From Rozella allomycis CSF55 (taxonomy: Eukaryota): DNA of 20,003 bases. The stretch is from the NCBI GenBank assembly GCA_000442015.1, contig KE561158.1, positions 62,001 to 82,003 of the forward strand, in the 5' to 3' direction. Below the pieces are notes generated by a model. It was not told the DNA's origin and searched no databases. It worked only from the letters and a program-made list of their open reading frames with translations. Shown here piece after piece: positions 523 to 19,801 of this stretch (positions within the stretch are counted from its first letter, which is position 1; each line of letters starts with the position of its first letter). The position numbers and the translations under genes are program-made.

Positions 523-1272
523 TTATTTCTTTTGTTCAGTCTTCTTTGGAGCAGCTTTCTTTGGCTCTTCACCATACTGAGCTAAAAGAGCATCTTTCTT
601 GGCTTGAACACGAGCAGCACGACGTTCACGGACGTTCTTGTTTCTTGCACGTTGAGCTTCAGCTTGATCACTTGATTCAAATTTATGAATAAAATTTACG
701 CTAACAATTTGGCACGTTGTTTTTCATTCTTGGCCTTGATGATATATTCCATCAAAACACGCTTGTTCTTGAAAACATTACCCTTTGACTTGAGGTAAAG
801 TTCACGGTACAAATGCTTGTCAATTTTGCCAGCTTCCCTGTATTTTCTTAGGAGGCGTCTCAAGACACGTTGACGGCGCATCCAGATGACCATGCTTGGC
901 ATACGAGCTTCAGCAGTACCTTGGCGTTTACCATATCCAGTATGACGACCTTTACGCTTGGCAGCCAATCTTTCACGAACACGGAATCTGGAGTGCATAG
1001 CTTGTGGTTGACGGATGATCAAACCATCTTTTACTAACTTGCGAATATCTTTGCCTAAAATTAAAATATGTTCAACAAAAAAATATTAAAGCAAATTGAA
1101 TGATCGTGTAATTTGAAACAGTTGCTTACGAGAATTTGCATTTCCGATGTTTTCAGTTTCCTTTGGATCCAACCAAACTTTGCGTTTTCCACATCCGAGA
1201 ACGGAAGCTGCTAAACGTTTCTGAGAGCGTAAATTTGGCCTAAACGTAACATATATAAGCTTAAAATTACAT
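523..1272 (-). CDS. RPL19: 60S ribosomal protein L19 (eL19), 4 exons
   Basis: Exons 1271-1272 (AT), 1130-1239, 700-1054, 523-670; introns 31, 75 and 29 nt. Spliced protein [26 protein letters not shown]...[18 protein letters not shown]...[15 protein letters not shown] is canonical eL19. Confidence 0.97.
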
Positions 1273-1766: not shown

Positions 1767-4081
1767 CTATGTTGCTTCTTCTATTTCTTCGTCTGGAACA
1801 GATACGTATCCTTCATTTGATACACTTTTATATTTATAGTTTTTGCAAATGCGCATATATAGGAGAATTGCCAGCACTAAAATACCCGAATACATGACGG
1901 ATGTNGGAACAGATACGTATCCTTCATTTGATGCACTTTTATATTTATAGTTTTTGCAAATGCGGATATATAGGAGAATTGCCAGCACTAAAATACCCGA
2001 ATACATGACGGATGTCCACATTTCATGATGTGGAATATTACCAATTGGATCAAAAAGGTTAAATAGGATTACTAATAGGTTACCGAGAGCTATCGCTAAA
2101 AGCCATCCTGACTGGCAAATCGATTTCATCGATGAAGGTGCTTGTGAGTATGCTATATAAAGTCATTAATATTGTCTACCAAATTCCAAACCAGTTATAC
2201 TAACCAATACTTCCCCGCATGTAAGAACGATGTATTGAGGTATTTGCCACAAAATTGATATACAGTTATCATTGCATTGAGAGGCATCACTAAGTCTAGG
2301 GCCAGTCATGGTATTATCAATTTCAAATTGGAGATATGCTGACATTAAAAATGCTACAAGCGCAATTATCAAACCCGCGCCAATTTTCCTTAGTGCGGTT
2401 AATTTGATGCCAAATTTCCTGACAGCAGGGAAAATAAGTTTTTGAAATAAAGGAATCATAATTAAAATGAAAACAGTGTTCCAAACCTGCATTGATTCTG
2501 GAGGAATTGAAATTGTGCTGCCGAATATTGACGCTTTATGGTTCATTTGCCAAACCTGTGCCGTCCATCTAGATCCTTGTTGATCATAGATCATCCAAAA
2601 AACTGACAGTGGAGCGAAAATAATCAAGACAGAAAACACAGACTTGATTTCATCTATAGTTTTGCGGTCAAATAACGGGTATGCGTAATATAACCAATGG
2701 TTAGGTAATTCGGCCTCAGATTCTTCCCTTTTCCTTTTTCTTCTCTCTTTTATTGCAGTTTTTACAACATTAAACATCAAAATAGAAACATTCCCACTTA
2801 GAGGTCTGTGTTTGTAGGATTTAGAGCCAATAACAAACAAGCAAGTCGCTACAATTAACAAGATCGCGGGCAAGCCAAAAGCCAATGGAAAACATTGATC
2901 AGATCCAAAACTTTTGAATTTTAATAAAAAAATTACCATTGAACATTTTCCCTAATCCATGGAGTTATTATCATGGAAAAGAAACTTCCCGCATTTATCG
3001 AAAAATAGAACAGCGAGAAAAATAACGCTGATTGCTTAACCTGTGAAGCATCGAATTGATCACCACCAAAAGAAACAACACAGGGCTTTTTTGTTTGATT
3101 GTAATATTTACCTTGATACCTCCTGTACCTATAGCTAACAATAGAAGCCCAATTAAAGCCCCATAGGGCTGTGGTGGATTGCCGGCAACAGATGGAAATG
3201 CAGTCACTGCCATTACTATGTTCCCAATAATATATACAATAGAAAGAGTTAAAATTGTTCTATATTTTCCCCAATAGCTATCTGCTAAAATAGCCCCTAT
3301 TCAAATATAACATTGGCGTCATACCGAATAATGGAAAAAAATATGCCAACATGACAAATGAATGATAAATCGAAGTAGCCATTCCATCAGGGAATCTCAA
3401 AAACTGTGCTAGGTATGTCCACAGAATTGCCCGCATTCCATAGTAAGAAAACCTCTCGCAGAACTCATTACCGATTATAAAAANGCTTCCCGCATTTATC
3501 GAAAAATAGAATAGCGAGAAAAACAATGCGGACTGTTTAACCTGTGAAGCATCGAATTGATCACCACCAAAAGAAACAACACAGGGCTTTTTTGTTTGAT
3601 TGTAATATTTACCTTGATACCTCCTGTACCTATAGCTAACAATAGAAGCCCAATTAAGGCCCCATAAGGCTGTGGTGGATTGCCAGCAACAGATGGAAAT
3701 GCAGTCACTGCCATTACTATGTTCCCAATAATATATACAATAGAAAGAGTTAAAATTGTTCTATATTTTCCCCAATAGCTATCTGCTAAAATAGCCCCTA
3801 TTCAAATATAACATTGGCGTCATACCGAATAATGGAAAAAAATATGCCAACATGACAAATGAATGATAAATCGAAGTAGCCATTCCATCAGGGAATCTCA
3901 AAAACTGTGCCAGATATGTCCACAGAATTGCCCTCATTCCATAGTAAGAAAACCTCTCGCAGAACTCATTACCGATTATAAAAAATACAGATTTTGGAAG
4001 TGAATCACTAGAATGATTATCGGACCCCATTATTTCAGTAGGGCCTCCGGCTTCCAATAATTTATCTGAATCTTCCGACAT
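1767..4081 (-). CDS. PTR2: Proton-dependent oligopeptide transporter (POT/PTR2, SLC15 PepT-like); one gene with assembly-duplicated segments
   Basis: ExxERFxYYG motif (NEFCERFSYYGMR), PTR2 signature after splicing (GAILADSYWGKYRTI), FYFSINAGS, and WQIPQY...GLEFAYSQAP. Four short GT-AG introns. Duplicates at n1905 and n3484. Confidence 0.93.
1795..2015. repeat. ~110-bp duplicate flanking gap n1905 (probable allelic overlap)
   Basis: 1795-1904 and 1906-2015 are identical except for about 2 SNPs. Confidence 0.8.
2984..3984. repeat. ~500-bp duplicate flanking gap n3484 (probable allelic overlap)
   Basis: 2984-3483 and 3485-3984 are near-identical, including introns, with scattered and mostly synonymous SNPs. 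Confidence 0.8.
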
Positions 4082-4630: not shown

Positions 4631-4827
4631 AGTCATAAGTGCGCGCCTATTTATATTGTGACCCATCGATTTCTGGAAATTTCGAGATGTCTGATCAGAT
4701 TCGGAGAATTTCTACAAAATCTTATCNAGAGAGTCATTAGTGCGCGCCTATTTATATTGTGGCCCATCGATTTCTGGAAATTTCGAGATGTCGGATCAGA
4801 TTCGGAGAATTTCTACCGAATCTTATC
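4631..4827. repeat. ~96-bp duplicate of the sHSP promoter flanking gap n4727 (probable allelic overlap)
   Basis: 4631-4726 and 4732-4827 differ by about 5 substitutions. Confidence 0.75.
4648..4684 (-). promoter_or_regulatory. TATA box plus heat shock element of the sHSP gene
   Basis: TATAAATA on the minus strand at 4648-4655, about 43 nt upstream of the ATG. Perfect three-unit HSE tTTCtgGAAatTTCg at 4670-4684. Confidence 0.85.
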
Positions 4828-6028: not shown

Positions 6029-9000
6029 TTAGAATGGCTTCACTCTAGTCTTACTCTTCAACATAGCATACGTAACAGTCTACCCAATTCAATCCCATAT
6101 CTTACCTGACCAGGCACCTTAACCTCACTCATCACCACGTCCCCAAAAACATCTCTATTCTTCTCCACAATATTCCACCACGCCTTTTCAAGCACCACAG
6201 CCGACCGACTGACCGGCGCATCCTACGCTCCCAAACACCAACACAGCATACCTCTCCATTAAACCTAATACAATTATCAATAACCAATTTAAAGTCGCTC
6301 AAAACTTGGCCAACATTCTCGTAAAAATCCTGCTGCAGTTTGGTATGGATCGTTGAGAGGTCCATTGGCTGCTTGATTATTTTCGGATAGTTGAAGAGCT
6401 TCAGTTGCTTGTAATCAACTGGCTCGTTGAATGGAAACGCGAACACTTCCTGTCTGATACCCTGGATCAGCTGAACAAGTCTGTGTTTTAAATCTCTAGG
6501 GATCGGGTTCTGCGGTTTCTTCAATGGCAGACATGAAACTAGTCTTGGCCATTCCTTTTCATAAAACAAATCCAATTTCTTTGCCATTACAAACACCTAA
6601 AATTGTTTCTGATTGAATCTATTTACTTCTGAATCATCGAGATTAAAAGTGTAAGCGTTTTTGATCATCAACTTGAAATCAAAGATGAAATCATCAATTG
6701 TTGCATACTTTTCAATACGCCCTGCGAGTGTTTTCAGATCCATGGGCATTCTGATAATGTCATAGTATTTGGGAATGGAATACAAGATGGCGTCAACGGG
6801 ATCCAAGAATGGAAATGCGAATGGCTGTTTTTTACATTTTTCAATCAAATTGTGGCAAACAATGATTTCTTCAGGATCCATTCTAGTGTGAGGCCAGGGT
6901 GTTAACCAACCAGCCACTTGAGTTTCAAACACATTTAATAATTCTAGAGCTTCGGTGTAGATGGAGGAATCTTGGTTGTTGTAAATGAAGCAGTTGACGA
7001 ATACTTGTTGCACATCGAGAATGAAATCAAAGGTGGAAGAGTAGTTTGAGAGATTTGATTCTATTGTAGAGAAATCCATTGGACGTTTAATTAAATGAAA
7101 GTAATTTGGGATATTTAAAGCTACTGGATCAACCGGTTCAAGAAAATGGTAACCTAATGGATGATCTTTTAAGAGAGATAGTAATGATTTGGCTTGATTT
7201 AAATTGAATGATTTAGGGAATCTACCAGACCAGCCATTGGAATAAGCTTCCAACGGTGCAGCTGATGTTAAAGAGATTGAAGGAGATTCAATTACTCTAT
7301 CAGAGTGGACTATTGTAGGGGACTGATTAATAATTGGAGACTCTATCAACGTAGATAATTCATCAATTTTGTAAGATTCATTGATTGTTTGTTCTTGTTG
7401 TTTTGAAGGTTTTAATTTTAATTTTATTGTAGAAGATTTTCTCCTTTCATTATTCAATTTCAATGAAACTTGCAATGATTTTCTACGCCCATCTCTTTCT
7501 CTCTCTCTTTCTCTTTCTACTTTTTCCCTCTCTAATCTCTCCCTCTCTAATCTCTCCAACCTCTCTAAATTTTCTAATTCATAATTCATTCTCTTTTGAT
7601 TCCACTCACTAATTTCTTCATTCTCAATTTGAATTCTAAAATTTCTATCATGCTCACTCTCATTATAATCACCAATAACTAAATCCTGCTGAAACAATGA
7701 CTTGACTCTAATTAAACACTTTTCATAAATCTTTTCAAGTTGAATTGAATTTTGATAAACAAGAGAACCTAAAAATAGAACAATGAAATTTCACAAATAC
7801 CTTTTTGATTAAAAAGTTGGCAATTTTTAAAGATTAATGAAACATCAGAATCAAAATGTTTAAAATTTTTGTAAATGTTTAATTTAGATTCAATTTTTGA
7901 TATATCCATTGGTCTTTTTATTTTGTTGAAATAGATTGGAATGTTTAATGCTATTGGATCTACAGGGTATAGAAAATCTATAGAAATTTTTTGAGATTTA
8001 ATTTTATCTAGAATTTCTAAAAATAGATCTAATAATTTCTTTTTTGGTTTTGGAATTAATTGTTTGGAAATTTGAAAAAATAATTTTTCAGTTTCCAGCC
8101 ATTCTTGTTTCTCTAATTTATTAAATGAAAATTTATTGTTTTTTATTAAAGATTCAAAAGATTCAACAAAAGATTCAATTGATTTAAATTGGTTCAAGTT
8201 GTTTCTCAACAATAAATAATCTGGATTAGTTAAGACCATTTGTCTTTCTCTTCCTGGATCATATTCCAATCTATTAACCAAACAAGCAATAACGCGATCA
8301 ATAGGAGGTACAGAGGGGGGTTGAAATGGTTGGGAATTAGTCACTGGTGAAGTAGTTGTAGTAAGAGGTGTAGTAGTAGCAGTAGAAGTAGTAGTAATTG
8401 ATTCAACCTTATCTTTCTCTTCTCCCTTCTCATCACCTTCACCTTCCACCCCTCCCCCTTCTACCTCTAACCACGTGGTAATGTTCTCATTAAAAAGATT
8501 CAACAAACTCTCCCCCTTCTTATAAAACAACGAATCAGGGGTATTAAAAGTAAAACAATTCTTGAAAATCAATTCAAAATCAAACATCAACTGATGCAAA
8601 TTCAAATACTTGCCACACAATGCCTTGCATTCAATAGTAAACAGATCCATCGGCTGCTTAATAACCTTGTAGTAATTATACACTCGCTTGTCAACTGGAT
8701 ACTTGAATATTTCAGACTCTGGAATCAAGCTTAATTGATCTAGAATTGATAATGCTTTTTCTGATATTTTGGTTGTGGAATTTGGAATTGCTATTATTGT
8801 TTTTATTGACTCTTCTGGAAGTGGATATTCTGGAATGTGATAACACAAGTCTAGATATTTAAATATTGATTTTAATCTCTGAGGATCGTTTATTAGTTTA
8901 TTAAATACATATTTTCTTATTCTGCTGCAAGTAGCATTAGCCAATGCCATAAATTCAGAAGTTTGTATAGACATTGAAGTAGATATTGAAGTAGACATTG

Positions 9001-10906
9001 AAGTAGATGGACCATAAGTAGTAGAAGTAGTATCAACTGTAGCAGTAGCCTCACCTTCCTTACTCTCTCCACTTCCCTCTCCTTCCTTTCTCTCTCTACT
9101 CTCTCCACTCTCTCTACTCTCTCCACTATCTTCACCCTTATCACACCACTGCCGTATGAAATCAATTAATTGTTGGACTTGCTTTCCATCTTCTTCAACT
9201 CTCGCAGGAATTTCCACATTACTCAACGATCTTCTACACTCCTTGCTAAAATACCTCTGCAATTTCAATCCCTTCTCATAAACAATAGACCCAGGGTCAT
9301 TGAATACAAAACAATTATCAAACATTAAAACAATATCGCTAATAAAATCACCGACAGTCTTGTAATGATTCAACTTGTATTCAATAGTGGACAAGTCTAT
9401 TGGATTAGTAATAATGTTGTAGTAGAATGGAGTTTTAATGTCAACTGGGTATCTGAATGGAATAGCCTCTGGATGTTCAGCCAGTCTGTTTAATAGCTTT
9501 TTGCAGGTTGGAATAAATAGTGAAATGTCATCGTTGTTGAAGGGTGAAGAATTGATGGACTTTCTTTTAATGTCTAGTTGGAATTGATTGAATTCATCTT
9601 CAACGTCTGATAATTGTTCTGGTTGTTCATTAATTGATATTTTAATTCTCATTGGTTGCATGAATTGTTTCTCATAATAGATTTCATATATTTGCATTAG
9701 ATAGCCATCCAACATGGGATTCACATTAAACAATTCTAATATTCTATTCTTTATCCATTCTTGCTGTTTCATCCATTCTTTGAATTTACATTGTTTTGTT
9801 TTTATCAATTTTAAGATATTAATCAAGCAGCAAACTTTAATTTCCAAGCAATCCCACTTGACCAAATCCAACACATAAGCCATCACATCCATTAGGGGAT
9901 TTAAAGGTAGTGAGTTTGACGTAGTAATAGATGTACTATTAGCAGTAACACCTGAACCTGTAGTAGTAATACTTGCACCTGTACTATTAACACTTACACT
10001 CGCTGTCACACTTGCACTACTACTCTTCCCCCCATTAACCCCACTAACTCCCCTNACTAGCAGTTGCACTACTACTACTTTTCCCCCCATTAACCCCACT
10101 AACTCCCCTTTCATCACCTCTTCCCTCTTGAAGAAAAGATAAAATTAATAAACTCTTGATGGCTTCTTTCCTAACAGAAATAAAATGCCCCTGTTTAGAA
10201 TAAGCTTTAAACAATTCCAAATCAATTTCCATTAACCTAGTCATTTGAAATTTACAAAGAGATTCCAAACACGAAACAGTCCACGTATTATGAAACGATG
10301 GAAACAACAAATCTTTCAATCGGTACCTCTCAATCTCTGACAGAATATCTTCAAACATGGGGTTTCTATAGTTCACTTTATTTCCTTTATTGATTATTAG
10401 AATAGATCTCGTTAATGATTTTATCACTGATGATACATAATAACTATCAGAATACTTTTTAAATCATTTCAATTGTTTACTTGATCATTTCCATTGTCAT
10501 TGTAACATAAAATATTCAACAGAAATTTAACTACAATCATTGGAGATTGGCCATTCTCATATCTAGAAAATGAAATTGCTTCTATTATTGCCTATTCTTA
10601 AGAGTTTAATGGTTTACTTTTTGCATAAAATAGTTTGTAAAGTTTTCAAATGAATTTGGCTTTGGCACTGTATAACTCTCTTGCTGTTCAGAATAACAAT
10701 ATCTTTCTTTCAATGGAAATAATAGTTTACCTATAATAATCAATTACTCTACTTGATTACCTCGTCTTGAAAAATGTTAATAAATATTTCAATCCCTTCC
10801 AATCCAAACTCTGATTCCCAACATGCTTCGCCAACGAATACGCAGCCTATTTGATTAGTCTTCAATCTTTACTTGCATTCTAACTCTATAAAATGCTTTT
10901 GAATCA
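6029..10906 (-). CDS. TAF2: TFIID subunit TAF2 C-terminal part fused to six bromodomains; 5' portion lost in gap n10907
   Basis: Spliced 5' part reads FYRVRMQ|AAYSLAK...NSFENFTNYFMQK|AI...LLNILCYNDN..|YSDSYY...EIERYRLKDLLFPSFHNTWTVSCL...YSKQGHFISVRKEA, matching TAF2. Six PVD...PMDL...N..(F/Y)N bromodomains follow in the same spliced frame. The stop at 6029 assumes a last 26-nt intron. Confidence 0.9.
10703..10760 (-). other. Double abutting mini-intron (30 + 28 nt) in TAF2
   Basis: ACGAG|gtaatcaagtagagtaattgattattatag|gtaaactattatttccattgaaagaaag|ATATTGT restores ...KTRYCY. Confidence 0.7.
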
Positions 10907-10907
10907 N

Positions 10908-13297: not shown

Positions 13298-14349
13298 ATG
13301 GTGTTGATCAAAGAATAGTAAGACTCATTCTCCACGTATATAGTCGCATAGTGTTACCGATAACAGTAGACGAAGTAACTATGAATTAACCTGAAGATAG
13401 TACCAAGTGGGACAATTGTACACTGTTGCCGACATGTCCAAGAGCGAATCTGACGGCGATTCCGGCGTAGAAATTCTCGAAAACAAGCCGTACGACGACC
13501 CGGAGCTTGGCAAGGGACAGTATACGCACAAGATCTACCATCTCGGCAGGTAATAATGGTGGTTGTGTTTGGAGTAGCAAAGTGCCGAGGTTTCTGGCGA
13601 TGATTGCGCCGGCGTCTGCGCTGAGGCTGGATGAGCAGGCGTGGAATGGGTACCCGCATTGCAAGACAGGTAGGATGTGTGTGATGCTTTTAGAGTAGTT
13701 TTGACGGTACGTGGGTGGATGGATGGAGATTTAGAGTCATTTTCTGGGGGAGAGGTTTTCGCTGATTATAGAGTCGAATCATTTAGCTGATCGCGGGACG
13801 ACTGAGAATGTAAGGGGGATGGTATAGTGTAGTAGGCGCTTAATTTGAGTGCGGAGCAGTTGAAGCAGCGGGAGGTTGTGTATATGGATATAGCGAATGA
13901 TCCAGTTGACCATTATGATGAGAAGAATGATCCAGCCAAGGTTAGGAGTGAGAAGACTGGGAGGGGACCTTTGACTGGGAATTGGAAGGTTTGGTGATGT
14001 GAGTGTGTGTGAATTTAGGATACATGTGAGCCTGTGATGTGTTGTTATAAAACGGTTATTATAAAGTTCAAGGTGTTTGGATTGGAGACAAAGACTGAGC
14101 ATTTTATAGCCAAAGTATGGAATTGCATTGAATATGAGTAGTATCAATTTGGATTGTTTCAAAAGTTTCATAGAATGTTATTTTGTTTGCTTGACAAGTG
14201 GTTTGGAATGACTATTGAAGATATTAGAAGGATAGAAGAGGAAGCTAAAAAGGAGTTGAATTTGGTAATAGATATGATTGATTGAGATTTAATAGAGAAT
14301 GTCAAAGAACAATTTAACTGATGGAGTTGCAGCACCAGCGCCTGCCTAG
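13298..14349 (+). CDS. PITPN: Class I phosphatidylinositol transfer protein (PITPalpha/beta-like, START-like fold), 10 exons, 266 aa; absent from the ORF track
   Basis: Exons 13298-13317, 13344-13374, 13401-13549, 13578-13669, 13699-13706, 13735-13809, 13836-13988, 14019-14114, 14142-14264, 14296-14349. [24 protein letters not shown]...[15 protein letters not shown]...[15 protein letters not shown]...KTGRGPL...MCCYK...[12 protein letters not shown]. Confidence 0.96.
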
Positions 14350-14471: not shown

Positions 14472-17400
14472 TTATTTGATTGAATTGAAAAACTCATCAG
14501 CTGTTGTCACCGAATAATCTTGCTCTTGATCCTGCTCATTCTCCAATTCTTCCAACAACTGATTCAACGACAATTTCTTATTCTTATTCACAACCTTTTT
14601 ATTATTCTCCTTTTTAAACAAATCAATCAACTCTGAAGTGTTCATTGAACTAGTTGAAGAATTTTGTTCATTAACAACTGAATTAGCCACAGCCAATTTG
14701 AATTTTTGCAAACTAGAAACACAATTTATGAAATTTACTTTAAAATTTTCTCTTCCAGGGTGTCTTTGCAAATTAATCTGTACACGTTGACAACCTTCTT
14801 TTGGCCTATTCTGTGCGCTCTGTCCATGGCTTGCAAATCTTTCCTAAGTTTAAAACGCTGAATTTAGTTACATGGGGTTCCAATCGTGTTCCATGAAGAT
14901 TACAGTGTCAGCCCCTGTCAGATTGAGACCCAAGCCACCAACTTGAGTAGTTAAAATTAAACAATCAATTGAAGGATCAGAATTAAATTTTGAAACGATA
15001 TCAATTCTTTTTGTTGAATCTACAGATCCATCTAATCTTAGATAAGAAATGAATGGGAAATGAGGTTTGAATAGAATATTTTCAATTAAATCCAGGGTTG
15101 ATTTTAGTTGAACAAAGATTAATATTCTGTGGGGACTTAAATTATTATCTGGTGATATTCCACAGTCTATCAGCAATTGTTTCAAAGCAACAAACTTTCC
15201 ACTAACCTCCAACTGTGACATTAAAGAAGAGTTTGAAGGTACAGAAGTTGGCAAGGAGTTTGTTTCCATTTTAACCTCTTTAACATCTTTAACACCTTTA
15301 ACACCTTTAACAACTTTAGCATTTTTAACATCTTTAGTGGCTTTACTCTTTCCCTTACCCTTCACTTTAACTTCTTCACCCTTCACTACCTCACCCTTAC
15401 CACTCACCTCACCTTTCTCACCCTCAATTCTTTCATCTTTGAGTAATAATGGATGAGTGATTAATCTTCTTAATTCTTGCAAACTCTGAAACACATGAAT
15501 TTCATCCAATTCAATTTGCTCATAAATCTTTGATTGAATTTTAGAAAGTGAACAATAATAATCTTGCATAATCTTGGGTGGCAAATCATTTAAAACTTGA
15601 TCTTTAATTCTTCTCAACATGAATGGCAGCATTTGTCTGTGTAAACCATCCAATGCAATAACCCCTGCTTCATTCATTTTAACTTCACCCTTTATTTTAA
15701 CGTCACTCTATATTTTAACGTCACTTTTAACTCTTACTTCACCCTTAACTCTTACTTCACTCTTAACTCTATCACCCATCTTATTCTCATTTATTTTCAT
15801 CTTGATGGGCTTGACATATTTCTCATTGAATTCTTGCTCACTGCCTAGAAATCCAGGCATTAGAAAATCAAAAATAGACCAAAGTTCTAGAATGTTATTT
15901 TGGATTGGAGTGCCAGTTAAAACTAATCTATGCTTAGCCACAATAGATTTAACAGCCAAAGAAATTTTAGTTTTTGGATTTTTGATTACATGGCCTTCAT
16001 CTAGAATGAAATAATTGTAATTGAATTTCTTAAAGTAGTGGAGATTGTTTCTTAAAAAGTCAAAGCTGCAAATGAAGACATTGTAGTTTGATGTTGATTG
16101 ATTAAGTGGCCAATCTTTTTTGTTTTTTGAATGGAATTGCAGGGGTTTTAAAAAGGAAGAGAAAGATTTGATTTCATTTTCCCAGTGGCCTATTAAAGAG
16201 GGTGGGCAAACAACCAAGCTAGGAATTTTATTATTCTTAAACTGAACAGCCGAAACAGCGCAAATTGTTTGCAATGTTTTACCTATATCAATTAAAGTAA
16301 TATCTTTTACCTATGTCAATGCAACTATCACCACTTTACCTATGTCATTTCAACTAACATCGTTTACCTATGTCAATTAAACTATCACTACTTTACCTAT
16401 GTCATTTCAAACCCATTTGATTACCTAATCCCATGTCATCACATAGTGCTCCATGTAGTCCATACTCTTGTAGAAATAATAACCAATTAACACCTTTCAA
16501 TAATAAACACTCTAATTACCTTCTTGTTGATATTTTCGCAGAGTAGCGTTAATTTCAGTTGGAATTTCATAATTTTTAATCTTCTTGTTATCTAGTAGAC
16601 AATCAATGAAATCATTATTGATGTTTCTATTCTTGTTTAGTAGAATGATTTGAATTAATTCACCAAAACAAAAACAAGATTTATTTCTAATTTCTTTGTT
16701 TGAATCACTCATCAATGATAGAATTGGAATTATTATTTCATTTGAAATTGAATCAATCAAAATATTTTCTTTTAAAATTAATTCAATCAAATCTAAAATT
16801 CCAAATTTAAATTCATAAATTTCTTTAATCAAATCTTTCAAATCTCTAAAATATTTTTCATCTCTTTTCAATAAATTTATAAATATTTTAATTGCATTTT
16901 CATTTCTATTTTTTATCAAATTTATTATTTTCTCTATTGGAATTTTATTTAAATAAACATTGTCCAACTCTCCACTAACAACCTCCAGCACTTCCAGCAA
17001 AGAAAAAGGTGAAGTAGTTAAGGTTGGAGTAGGTTGAGTTGGAGAGTTAGTAGTGGTTGGAGTGCTAGTCTCAATAGTAGTAGTAGTATTGACAGTAGAA
17101 GTAGTCTCAATAGAAGTAGAAGTAGTAGTCTCAATAGAAGTAGTAGGTTCACCTTCTTTCTTTTCTTCTGCCTTTTCAACTCCCTTTTCCACTTCTAATC
17201 CTTCAAGGGAAATGATTTGATTGAAAATGGATATTTCGTGTAGATTGTTGCCAAACTCTCTCACAATTAATTTTAAAACATTTCTGGAAGCTTCATTCTT
17301 CATTTCAATTAAATTTTTAATAATTTTTTCCTTTTTAAACTTTTTGAATACTTTAACAATTGAATTTGAAACAATTTCTAAAATTTCTTTATTTTCTTCT

Positions 17401-19777
17401 CTTCTCAAACAAAACATTAATGGTCTCACAACTTGATTCAATGCTAAATTCACATCATTCTTGACCTTTACAGCAACCTCCACAGCAACTTCTCTATAGA
17501 GTTGTGGGAGTTGAGGTTGAGGGAGTTGAGGTTGAAGGGGTTGGAGTTGATCACTAACATTCCCATTCACTTCCCCATTCACTTCCCCTTCCCCTTTCCC
17601 CTCACCATGCACTTCCCCTTCACCAGTGACTTCCCCTTTCTCCTCACCATTCTCACCATTCTCACCATCTGCTTCCCCTTTAACTTCCATAAAATAGTTT
17701 AATAAATAAAAATTCAAATTCTTCTTTTCAATTAAACTCAAAAACTTTATAATTTTATTATAATTTGATTCATTAATTAAAACAGAAATCATTTTAAATG
17801 AATAAATTCTATTTCTAATCAAAACATCTTCTCCAAACACTCTAATATCCATTTCAACTTCATTCTCAACTTGAATCAAAACTCTTTCAATAAATTTCTC
17901 AATCTTTTCAATTTCAATCTCAAATTTTTTAATCTTTTTCATTAAATCTAAACTTTTATCTAAAATCATCTTTTTTAATTCTTTTTAATCTATTTTACTT
18001 TATTTTCTTCTTTCAAACTATTTTCTATCAATTTTTCAATCAATTCATTCATCAATTCTCTCTCCACTTCTTTAATTGTTAAAGTATTCATCATCCCTTC
18101 AATTGATTCTAAAACTGACATTCTAACTCCAATTATTGAATGTCTAAAAAACTGAAACATATTTGGCAAAAATTTATTCAAATAAAGAGAAGGGTTAGAA
18201 GGGTTAGAAGGGGGAGTAGTAGAGGTAATTGGGGGTTGACATGGAGAAGTAGTAGCAGTAGCAGTAGTAGTAGTAACAATCTCACCACCCATCTCACTTA
18301 GGGTTACAAGCTTGGATAATAGTCTCATTATAGATTCAGTTGAACACGTCAAATCATCCAACTCTTTCATATTATCACTCAGAATATTCATCACTTGCTC
18401 CTTTTCATCCTTCAAATACTCAACTATCGCATACATTGATTCAGCTCCAGCCTTTTTAATATCATCTTCTTCACTCTTCAACGCTTCTATTATCACCCCA
18501 TACACAATTGGCTTCAACTCACTAAACAAATCTCTTCTCACCCCCAATATATACTTGATTCCCAACAGTCCACTCAATCTAACCTCCCAATGCTCATTCT
18601 CACTCAACTCTACCAACAACCCCATTATTCTCTTCACATTCTCATCACTCACACATCTCATCAACAACCCCAAACACTGTCCACCAGTCTCTCTAACTGG
18701 AACTGATATACTATCATCTATATAATCAGCAAATCTATCCAACGCCAACAAACTCACTAGTCTCAATCCAACATCAACACTCCATCTCTCATGCTTTTCT
18801 TCATTCTTTTCTTTACTCAATCCCTTCCTCTTCCCTCCATCCCTTCCATGCTCTCTTATAATCTCACTCAACCCCAACACTGCTCCATGTCTCACATTCC
18901 AATTCGTATCAAATATCTCAACACAAAACTCTTCACACAGTCTCTGAAACTTCCACTCGCCATCCTCTCCCTTCATCTCTCCTTCACCCTCCTCTGTCTT
19001 AGCCTTCTTGCCAACCTTCATCAACTCTTCGGCATTCACCCGCTTCTTATTCCTACTCAACCCCAAAATTAACTCTCACTTTTTCATTCGCTTCAATCTA
19101 TTCCTCTCTCGAGCACTCAGCCCCTCCATCTCCACCCTTTCTTCATCCTCTTCCACTTTCACAAAATCACTCTCCTCTACCAAACTCTCCATAAATTGTG
19201 CACCCAGCCCCAATCGTTGCATCATCATCTTTCTCTGCTCCTTCAAATCAGCCGTCAACTCACTCACATCTTGGTCATATTCCTACTCTTGCAAATAACC
19301 AACTCTTTACATCCCCAGATGACGCTACCAACAATTTCCCATCATTCAACACTCGTTCCAAATCATACGCCTCAAAAGTCAATCTTCCTTCATTCTATCC
19401 CCACATTTAATTCTTGTTACCTCATCCTGCACTTTCTCATCTTTATTCTCCTCATCTTCCACATCATAATCTTCACCACAAACATTCCTCACAATCTCCC
19501 TAACAGCAACCGCAGCCGCCCATCGCGTCTCCCCACTCTTGCTCCTCAAAAACCGTTTCACCTATAACCCCCAAACAATTACCCTTACCCTCCTTATCAA
19601 ATACCCAAACTCTTCTGGATACTCGCGCTGGATATCCCCAAGATTTCGCGCAGCAGACTCTCGTATCCCCTGCGTCGACCCACTGTCCAATAACAACACC
19701 AATCGGTCAAGTCTATACGTTCACACTCTATTCATTACCTACATGCTGTTTTTAAATGGTTTTTACCTGCTAGTCAT
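14472..19777 (-). CDS. MOT1: TBP-associated SNF2-family ATPase Mot1/BTAF1, multi-exon
   Basis: [47 protein letters not shown]...[72 protein letters not shown]. Confidence 0.97.
16283..16424 (-). repeat. Array of five abutting 28-29 nt GT...AG mini-intron units within MOT1 motif I
   Basis: Units 16397-16424, 16368-16396, 16340-16367, 16311-16339 and 16283-16310 each start GTAA and end TGA(C/T)ATAG. Confidence 0.9.
19713..19766 (-). other. Double abutting mini-intron (28 + 26 nt), first intron of MOT1
   Basis: ATGACTAGCAG|gtaaaaaccatttaaaaacagcatgtag|gtaatgaatagagtgtgaacgtatag|ACTTGACCGA gives MTSRLDR. Confidence 0.75.
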
Positions 19778-19801
19778 CTTTTTTCGTCGCTCATTAGGAC
19801 C

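Follow-up and report, generated by a model that had tools for sequence, protein, structure and literature searches.

A tandem array of complete mini-introns in the Walker A codon of Rozella allomycis MOT1: a candidate for stepwise removal across zero-length exons

MOT1/BTAF1, the TBP-associated Snf2 ATPase, is encoded on the minus strand of the stretch of Rozella allomycis CSF55 DNA analyzed here (20,003 nt of contig KE561158.1, positions 62,001 to 82,003, hereafter the window, in whose own coordinates all positions are given), and the glycine codon of its Walker A motif is interrupted by 142 nt. This interruption probably consists of five spliceosomal mini-introns, each complete, in a tandem array that arose by in-register duplication of an intron of ~28 nt, and that is most likely removed in several steps rather than one. 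Zero-length-exon recursive splicing and intron gain by tandem duplication are both known kinds of process, of which the array would be a variant built from tandem copies of a complete mini-intron. The array and its flanking exons are laid out as follows, where U1 to U5 are the units in the order of transcription.

16283..16424, minus strand: five abutting mini-intron units, 142 nt, interrupting the Gly codon of Walker A in phase 1 (DDMGLG|KT)
16397..16424, minus strand: U1, 28 nt, GTAAT...TGACATAG
16368..16396, minus strand: U2, 29 nt, GTAAA...TGACATAG
16340..16367, minus strand: U3, 28 nt, GTAAA...TGACATAG
16311..16339, minus strand: U4, 29 nt, GTAAA...TGACATAG
16283..16310, minus strand: U5, 28 nt, GTAAA...TGATATAG
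16425..16493, minus strand: upstream exon, including the first Gly base, its TTAG end mimicking a 3′ splice site
15738..16282, minus strand: downstream exon, starting GTAAAAC (the last two Gly bases, then Lys-Thr) and mimicking a 5′ splice site

An initial annotation, made from the letters of the window, had divided the interruption exactly into units of 28, 29, 28, 29, and 28 nt, and this division is borne out, since the parse leaves no remainder and every unit runs from GTAA to TAG. The exon 5′ of the array ends ...GATGACATGGGATTAG and the exon 3′ of it starts GTAAAACA, and when joined they give DDMGLG|KT, the codon being broken after the first base of Gly. The four inner junctions (16396/7, 16367/8, 16339/40, and 16310/1) all read TAG|GTAAA, the 5′ border reads TAG|GTAAT and the 3′ border TAG|GTAAA, so that TAG|GTAA is found at 6/6 junctions, while the earlier wording that every junction is AG|GTAAA applies to five of the six and fails at the 5′ border. 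Since the exons on either side end and begin like splice sites, the heptamer TAGGTAA is present at each border, in line with the earlier remark that the flanking exons read TAG|GTAAAA. It occurs nine times in the window against 2.34 expected (at least nine in 0/100 shuffles), and six of these nine occurrences are the borders and inner junctions of the MOT1 array. Tandem Repeats Finder (TRF) reports two periods at 16278-16410, one of 28 (4.7 copies, 77% matches) and one of 57 (2.3 copies, 88% matches). The duplication of a 57-nt dimer proposed earlier is one among several possible histories of the units: U2 and U4 are indeed alike at 26/29 aligned positions, whereas the likeness of U1 to U3 (22/29) is not above that of U2 to U3 or U3 to U4 (23/29). 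An RNA structure uniting the ends of the array was also considered and rejected, as no stable fold joining them was found (minimum free energy −21.2 kcal/mol, z = −0.19), and 16100-16600 gave no matches to Rfam or known RNA families at E ≤ 1.

The units differ mainly in their interiors. In an alignment of six of them, a small sample of short and related sequences made up of U1 to U5 and the middle unit of a second allele (described below), GTAA, a central TT, and the 3′-proximal TGA and ATAG are invariant and most other columns vary. When GTAAA and TGAYATAG are taken together as the signal set, a choice made post hoc, 2/13 signal columns are variable against 14/16 interior ones (Fisher p = 1.5e-4), which upholds the earlier remark that the interiors have diverged while the ends are kept. 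With GTAAA and TAG only, the figures are 1/8 and 15/21 (p = 0.01). Between U1 and U3, the first four and the last 14 letters are identical and 8/10 of those between them differ. Neutral decay should strike ends and middle equally, and hence conservation of this type argues that the inner splice signals of the array are in use. We infer that TGAYATAG may be a branch region of the units. As judged from homologs and reading frame, all 142 nt must leave the mRNA: the motif D[DE]MG[LM]GK[TS] is uninterrupted in 120/120 homologs, and when any subset of units is retained, a stop codon is met inside the first retained unit (31/31 subsets). The Walker A codon is also free of introns in 80/80 metagenome MOT1 loci (73 by motif and 7 by eye), each of them at ≤53% identity, so that the intron site is lineage-specific; no close MOT1 relative is present among these 80 loci (maximum 53% identity).

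Copies of this locus in other assemblies demonstrate that the array is real DNA and that it varies in length. Two independently built contigs, one of 2518 nt (X4, possibly from the source sample of the window) and one of 376 nt (X7, from another study), cross the array with no gaps and contain five units each, which confirms the array against the possibility, raised in the initial annotation, that it might prove a misassembly. In a third study (X5), the flanking contigs end at the array edges, and a contig with a depth of 97 (the flanks have 246-268) connects 16318 with 16392 through 15 other letters, which take the place of 73 nt. The allele rebuilt from this contig is of 84 nt (28 + 28 + 28) and consists of U1, a new middle unit, and U5, where the middle unit starts with GTAAA, ends with TGACATAG, and is unlike U3 at 4/28 positions. 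The MOT1 array locus is polymorphic by whole units, five versus three. The three-unit allele may come from a second haplotype or from a second strain.

The size of the units is that of ordinary introns in this DNA. Intron sites were read in seven genes of the window from frame continuity and family motifs, with profile coordinates for RPL19 and for the phosphatidylinositol transfer protein (PITP) and with exact threading of the annotated protein for MOT1; the count is taken over all junctions of these genes bar one unjoinable junction of a TAF2-like gene, and the small heat-shock, thaumatin-like, and BED-like genes lie outside the survey. Of the 34 sites, 31 are 26-32 nt long, in agreement with the earlier statement that every unit matches the typical intron size, and each unit of the array is, by its letters, indistinguishable in length and ends from a normal intron of the window. 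Only three sites are longer than 32 nt and two of these are exact concatemers. The lengths by gene are as follows.

MOT1: nine sites of 26-32 nt; long sites of 54 and 142 nt
RPL19: 31 and 29 nt; a long site of 75 nt
SNX3-like PX gene: 28 and 27 nt; no long site
TAF2-like/bromodomain gene: 26, 26, 32, 30, 29, and 26 nt; no long site
PCI-domain gene: 26 nt; no long site
PITP: 26, 28, 29, 28, 26, 30, and 27 nt; no long site
Peptide transporter: 28, 26, 26, and 27 nt (duplicated copies counted once); no long site
1055..1129, minus strand: the single long intron of RPL19, 75 nt with no inner AG, a control that is not a concatemer

Short introns have been noted in this organism before, as two papers mention introns of ~30 nt in the S23 gene of R. 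allomycis (PMC6349667) and a density of 2.5 introns per kb (PMC8476143). The start codon of RPL19 is itself split AT|G by the 31-nt intron (1240-1270, minus strand).

The second concatemer occupies the first intron site of MOT1, and a neighboring gene on the other strand has two mini-introns that are nearly in contact.

19713..19766, minus strand: second abutting pair, 54 nt, after ATGACTAGCAG, made up of 28 nt (19766-19739) and 26 nt (19738-19713)
13670..13734, plus strand: in the PITP gene, a 29-nt intron (13670-13698), an 8-nt micro-exon (13699-13706), and a 28-nt intron (13707-13734)

The two parts of the 54-nt pair are joined at TAG|GTAA and have unrelated interiors, and the MTSRLDRL start of MOT1 requires the loss of both the 28- and the 26-nt part. 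Among random 54-nt introns of like composition, 0.2% have a TAG|GTAA that splits them into two parts of 24-32 nt, and 5% have an AG|GT of any kind that does so. In PITP, the micro-exon at 13699-13706 (plus strand) completes Val-Leu-Thr: positions 67-96 of Pfam IP_trans fall on the exon before it, residues 2-25 of the following exon correspond to positions 101-124, and positions 97-99 come only from these 8 nt. An 8-nt exon between two mini-introns indicates that the organism removes mini-introns that stand nearly back to back, and an exon of zero length is the limit of that series.

The array would have begun as one intron of ~28 nt within the P-loop Gly codon of R. allomycis MOT1. Slippage or unequal exchange between two copies of TAGGTAA would then gain or lose exactly one intron and leave the mRNA unaltered, and both the duplication and its reversal were probably eased because TAG|GTAA stands at both borders of the intron; repeated rounds of such slippage or exchange could give rise to arrays and to alleles with different numbers of units. 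The earlier proposal that introns here multiply by tandem duplication at an AG|GT site is sustained at the level of DNA by the array of units, the variation in copy number, and the conserved ends. Origin of the units from duplicated exon was also tried and rejected, the longest word that they share with a flanking exon being 7 nt (ATGACAT, upstream exon), which is also reached in 1371/5000 shuffles (27%). Each unit appears to have, at normal spacing, a GTAA 5′ splice site, a TGAY resembling a branch site, and a TAG at its 3′ end, and with a full set of signals in every unit the array is most likely excised in several steps by way of the inner sites. Every excision would join ...AG to the next GTAAA..., thereby rebuilding a splice site across a zero-length exon, and in whatever order this happened, and whichever donor was paired with a later acceptor, only whole units would remain and the same final mRNA would be produced.

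A second explanation, to which we give roughly one chance in four, accepts the birth of the array by duplication and differs in its removal: the 142 nt would now be taken out at once, as one long intron bounded by the first GTAAT and the last TAG, with the inner sites surviving as unused relics. The intron of RPL19 speaks for this explanation. Its bounds are fixed by Pfam Ribosomal_L19e, positions 1-35 of which lie before it and 37-53 after it with 36 as the split codon, and as it is 75 nt long with no inner AG, the spliceosome of this organism can exceed the length of one unit, which makes removal of longer introns in a single step possible, perhaps those of 84-142 nt included. The earlier phrase of a spliceosome tuned to ~28 nt is accordingly overstated, even though 31/34 sites are of 26-32 nt. 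The search for RNA also brought nothing to the contrary: of the eight sequencing runs (five studies) listed as containing the gene, none is of RNA, the matches of the RNA run X10 were limited to two short pieces of low complexity, and no spliced junction, intermediate, or lariat was seen. These points weigh against stepwise removal of a duplicated array, as do several of its own weak places, namely that the wider set of signal columns (TGAYATAG) was chosen after the alignment had been viewed, that this octamer has no consensus among the other introns of the window, that six short related units are a small sample in which concerted evolution of the repeat ends could have kept them alike, and that the three-unit allele is one contig from one run (X5). 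Removal in one step is, in turn, hard to reconcile with the conservation of the inner signals next to diverged interiors (2/13 versus 14/16 variable columns), which is unexpected for unused sites, and with the fact that only 3/34 intron sites exceed 32 nt, two of them being exact concatemers. As a rule, splicing takes the first AG that follows the branch, and a branch in any unit would by this rule take the TAG of that same unit. Stepwise removal of the five mini-introns through their inner sites is therefore preferred.

It is very improbable that the repeat, or its copy number, was produced by the draft assembly. The window is a draft scaffold with eight single Ns, and the three Ns that were checked lie at junctions of two-copy repeats of ~100 nt, which is what would lend color to such an artifact; the units of the array, however, differ by 10-35%, compared with the 94-97% identity of the artifactual duplicates, the X4 and X7 contigs span the whole array without gaps even though X7 is from a different study, and the allele of X5 differs in length and yet has a like architecture of units. 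The three Ns are at 204, 1905, and 4727, at junctions within the TRF rows 105-304, 1794-2015, and 4631-4827 (copies 94-97% identical), and those at 3484 (3278-3800) and 10055 (10000-10144) likewise fall in two-copy duplications of ~100 nt of coding sequence. Such two-copy duplications at single Ns look like unmerged contig ends of the draft and not like biology.

The identity and the model of the host gene bear on whether the array is spliced at all. The coding region is placed as follows.

14475..19777, minus strand: MOT1/BTAF1 coding region (TBP-associated Snf2 ATPase), 1620 codons, 11 intron sites

A protein search with the helicase part, run with a read-through query, gave the annotated protein P0001 (1620 aa) at 98% identity, which carries the NCBI name 'SNF2-related domain-containing protein [Rozella allomycis CSF55]'; next in that search, at 37-46% identity, come fungal and animal TBP-associated factor 172/Mot1 proteins. 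P0001 threads onto the window exactly, letter for letter, from the ATG at 19777 to a last codon that ends at 14475 and is followed by TAA, across intron sites of 54, 27, 26, 28, 27, 29, 26, 142, 30, 28, and 26 nt in that order, and thus the published annotation already handles the 142 nt as intervening sequence. The precomputed Pfam domains on it are PF00176, PF00271, PF02985, and PF13513. The combination of SNF2_N and Helicase_C with HEAT repeats and a conserved N-terminus places it in the MOT1/BTAF1 group of the Snf2 family, the N-terminus being MTSRLDRL, and [ST]RL[DE]RL is present within the first 60 residues of 73/120 homologs. The exact match to P0001 assigns the window to Rozella allomycis, and its DNA is that of an early-diverging fungus (Rozellomycota) with the standard genetic code. 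A ciliate reading, in which TAA and TAG would be Gln and the interruptions internal eliminated sequences, was rejected, since the standard code leaves frames of 361 and 490 codons open and the protein match is to a fungus.

Over 17730-19798, X7 contains a diverged copy of MOT1 with 43 substitutions and 18 gapped letters over ~1.9 kb, at a depth of 27.8 versus ~5 for identical contigs further 3′; this copy is a second haplotype or strain. In this copy 3/3 indels that are not multiples of three (19290, 19403, and 19573) lie inside predicted introns and 2/2 that are multiples of three (19132 and 19437) lie inside exons. This pattern is an independent check on the gene model, and indicates that MOT1 is a gene under selection. 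That the units are not spliced at all, the gene being a pseudogene, the DNA being removed before transcription, or the array being bypassed in translation, has nothing for it except the lack of RNA data, and is extremely unlikely with 1620 codons open across 11 interruptions that all restore conserved sequence, with the placing of the X7 indels, and with canonical GT...AG ends on every unit.

Some further features of MOT1 were observed. The intron lengths of the diverged X7 copy differ by ±1 nt from those in the window. At 15528, 15531, 15567, and 17286, the X4, X5, and X7 contigs are mutually identical and the window is different, so these letters are probably errors or a private variant of the window assembly. 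The 30-nt intron at 15708-15737 (minus strand) is a multiple of three, has an in-frame TAG end, and lies within a coding repeat with a period of 18 nt; its GTAAG start is part of the 18-nt repeat unit, and the intron may have originated in repeat sequence. The interiors of the MOT1 introns are very poor in C, which makes up 9/184 letters (T 66, A 64, G 45).

A candidate third abutting pair, in the TAF2-like gene (TAG|GTAAAC, 10727-10733), was rejected, because the homologs P0121 and P0122 show that GKLLFPLKERYC is coding. GKLLFPLKERYC begins at the GGT of 10727-10733, and the site is an intron/exon border like the 3′ border of the array. The 30-nt intron at 10727-10757 (minus strand; GTAATC...TATAG) is followed by an exon that starts GTAAAC, and no GT...AG intron joins the frames there, although by the homologs the DNA on either side is coding, which is probably due to a draft error of 1 nt. 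This long gene (~6050-10868, minus strand) encodes TAF2-like TPR repeats (PF25577) together with a series of bromodomains, an architecture also found in P0121 (2113 aa) and P0122 (Furculomyces, 1863 aa); its own annotated protein was absent from the results of the protein search. An N at 10907 cuts both this gene and the PCI-domain gene on the plus strand, and probably marks a place where scaffold pieces of uncertain spacing or orientation were joined.

Where new introns come from has long been an open question, and few recent gains have been proven. In MOT1, a ready-made intron has seemingly been copied in place up to five times, and alleles with three and five copies appear to co-exist. Such a gain would cost next to nothing, since a second copy of an element that removes itself leaves the protein as it was. 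Provided that its units are spliced separately, the array is the most compact natural substrate of recursive splicing, with four zero-length exons in 142 nt, and it is set in an essential gene of an organism with introns close to the smallest size physically possible. Such a substrate would test how closely two introns may sit, the mutual exclusion of neighboring spliceosomes, and the pairing of 5′ splice site and branch site among several equivalent partners. A wider generalization is tentative, and we think it more doubtful than the reading of the array itself: in this early-branching lineage of fungi, introns would reproduce and vanish as whole units by slippage at TAG|GTAA, and 'long' introns would typically be concatemers of ~28-nt units with obligatory serial re-splicing. 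Were whole-unit slippage general, introns could be gained and lengthened at no cost, with neither a transposon nor reverse splicing nor new splice signals required. For annotators of such genomes, the array is a warning that several short introns may pass for one 'long' intron.

The array can be compared with four known systems. The nearest to its proposed removal is zero-nucleotide-exon recursive splicing, known from ratchet points in long Drosophila introns and, in a fungus, from two cases in Schizosaccharomyces pombe (bioRxiv 10.1101/006163; bioRxiv 10.1101/226894). As in that system, the MOT1 array has a 3′ splice site set against a 5′ splice site within the interruption, at four inner TAG|GTAAA junctions, and removal of the upstream part would regenerate a 5′ splice site and leave nothing in the mRNA. 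The absence of any trace in the mRNA comes here from homology and annotation (threading of P0001, 120/120 homologs, and 31/31 stops), and the conservation of the ratchet sequence is seen on six units, a small sample with the wider column set post hoc. The array has the features of zero-length-exon recursive splicing at the level of sequence. The known ratchet points cut long introns (336 nt in the S. pombe case and very long ones in flies) into unrelated pieces, whereas MOT1 has five homologous minimal introns of 28-29 nt inside a codon and in polymorphic number; and stepwise use has been proven with RNA for recursive splicing, while for the array it is inferred from the letters.

The nearest system to its proposed birth is intron gain by tandem genomic duplication across AGGT (PMC3265369 and PMC4974935). 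In both, a second AG|GT is created, the DNA between is spliced out, and the event is silent in the mRNA, and the direct tandem repeat with AGGT at its junctions is present in MOT1 with TRF periods of 28 and 57 and TAG|GTAA at all six junctions. The cases of that model, however, have exon sequence duplicated into a new intron, while in MOT1 the units are without significant likeness to the flanking exons; the piece duplicated was already an intron and each event would add a ready-made one. Stwintrons, the spliceosomal twin introns of filamentous fungi (PMC8469720), are likewise complex fungal intervening sequences that need consecutive splicing reactions. In a stwintron, however, the donor, branch, or acceptor element of an outer intron is split by an inner one and the order is forced, whereas the units in MOT1 are complete and abutting and any order would work; classification of the array as a stwintron was rejected, as GTAA and TAG are intact at the ends of every unit and each unit abuts the next with no overlap.

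Uniformly ultra-short introns of ~25 bp are found in Paramecium and Nyctotherus (PMC5014332), and R. allomycis shares with such genomes a very narrow distribution of intron lengths in which retained introns bring stop codons. In the literature searched, no report was found of abutting or tandemly repeated introns in genomes of the Paramecium and Nyctotherus type, nor, in full text, of abutting or tandemly repeated spliceosomal introns in general, although an earlier mention in the Rozella genome paper or its supplements is possible. The array also exceeds an intronic minisatellite, as judged from its units, because its repeat unit is a full intron with signals that are apparently conserved.

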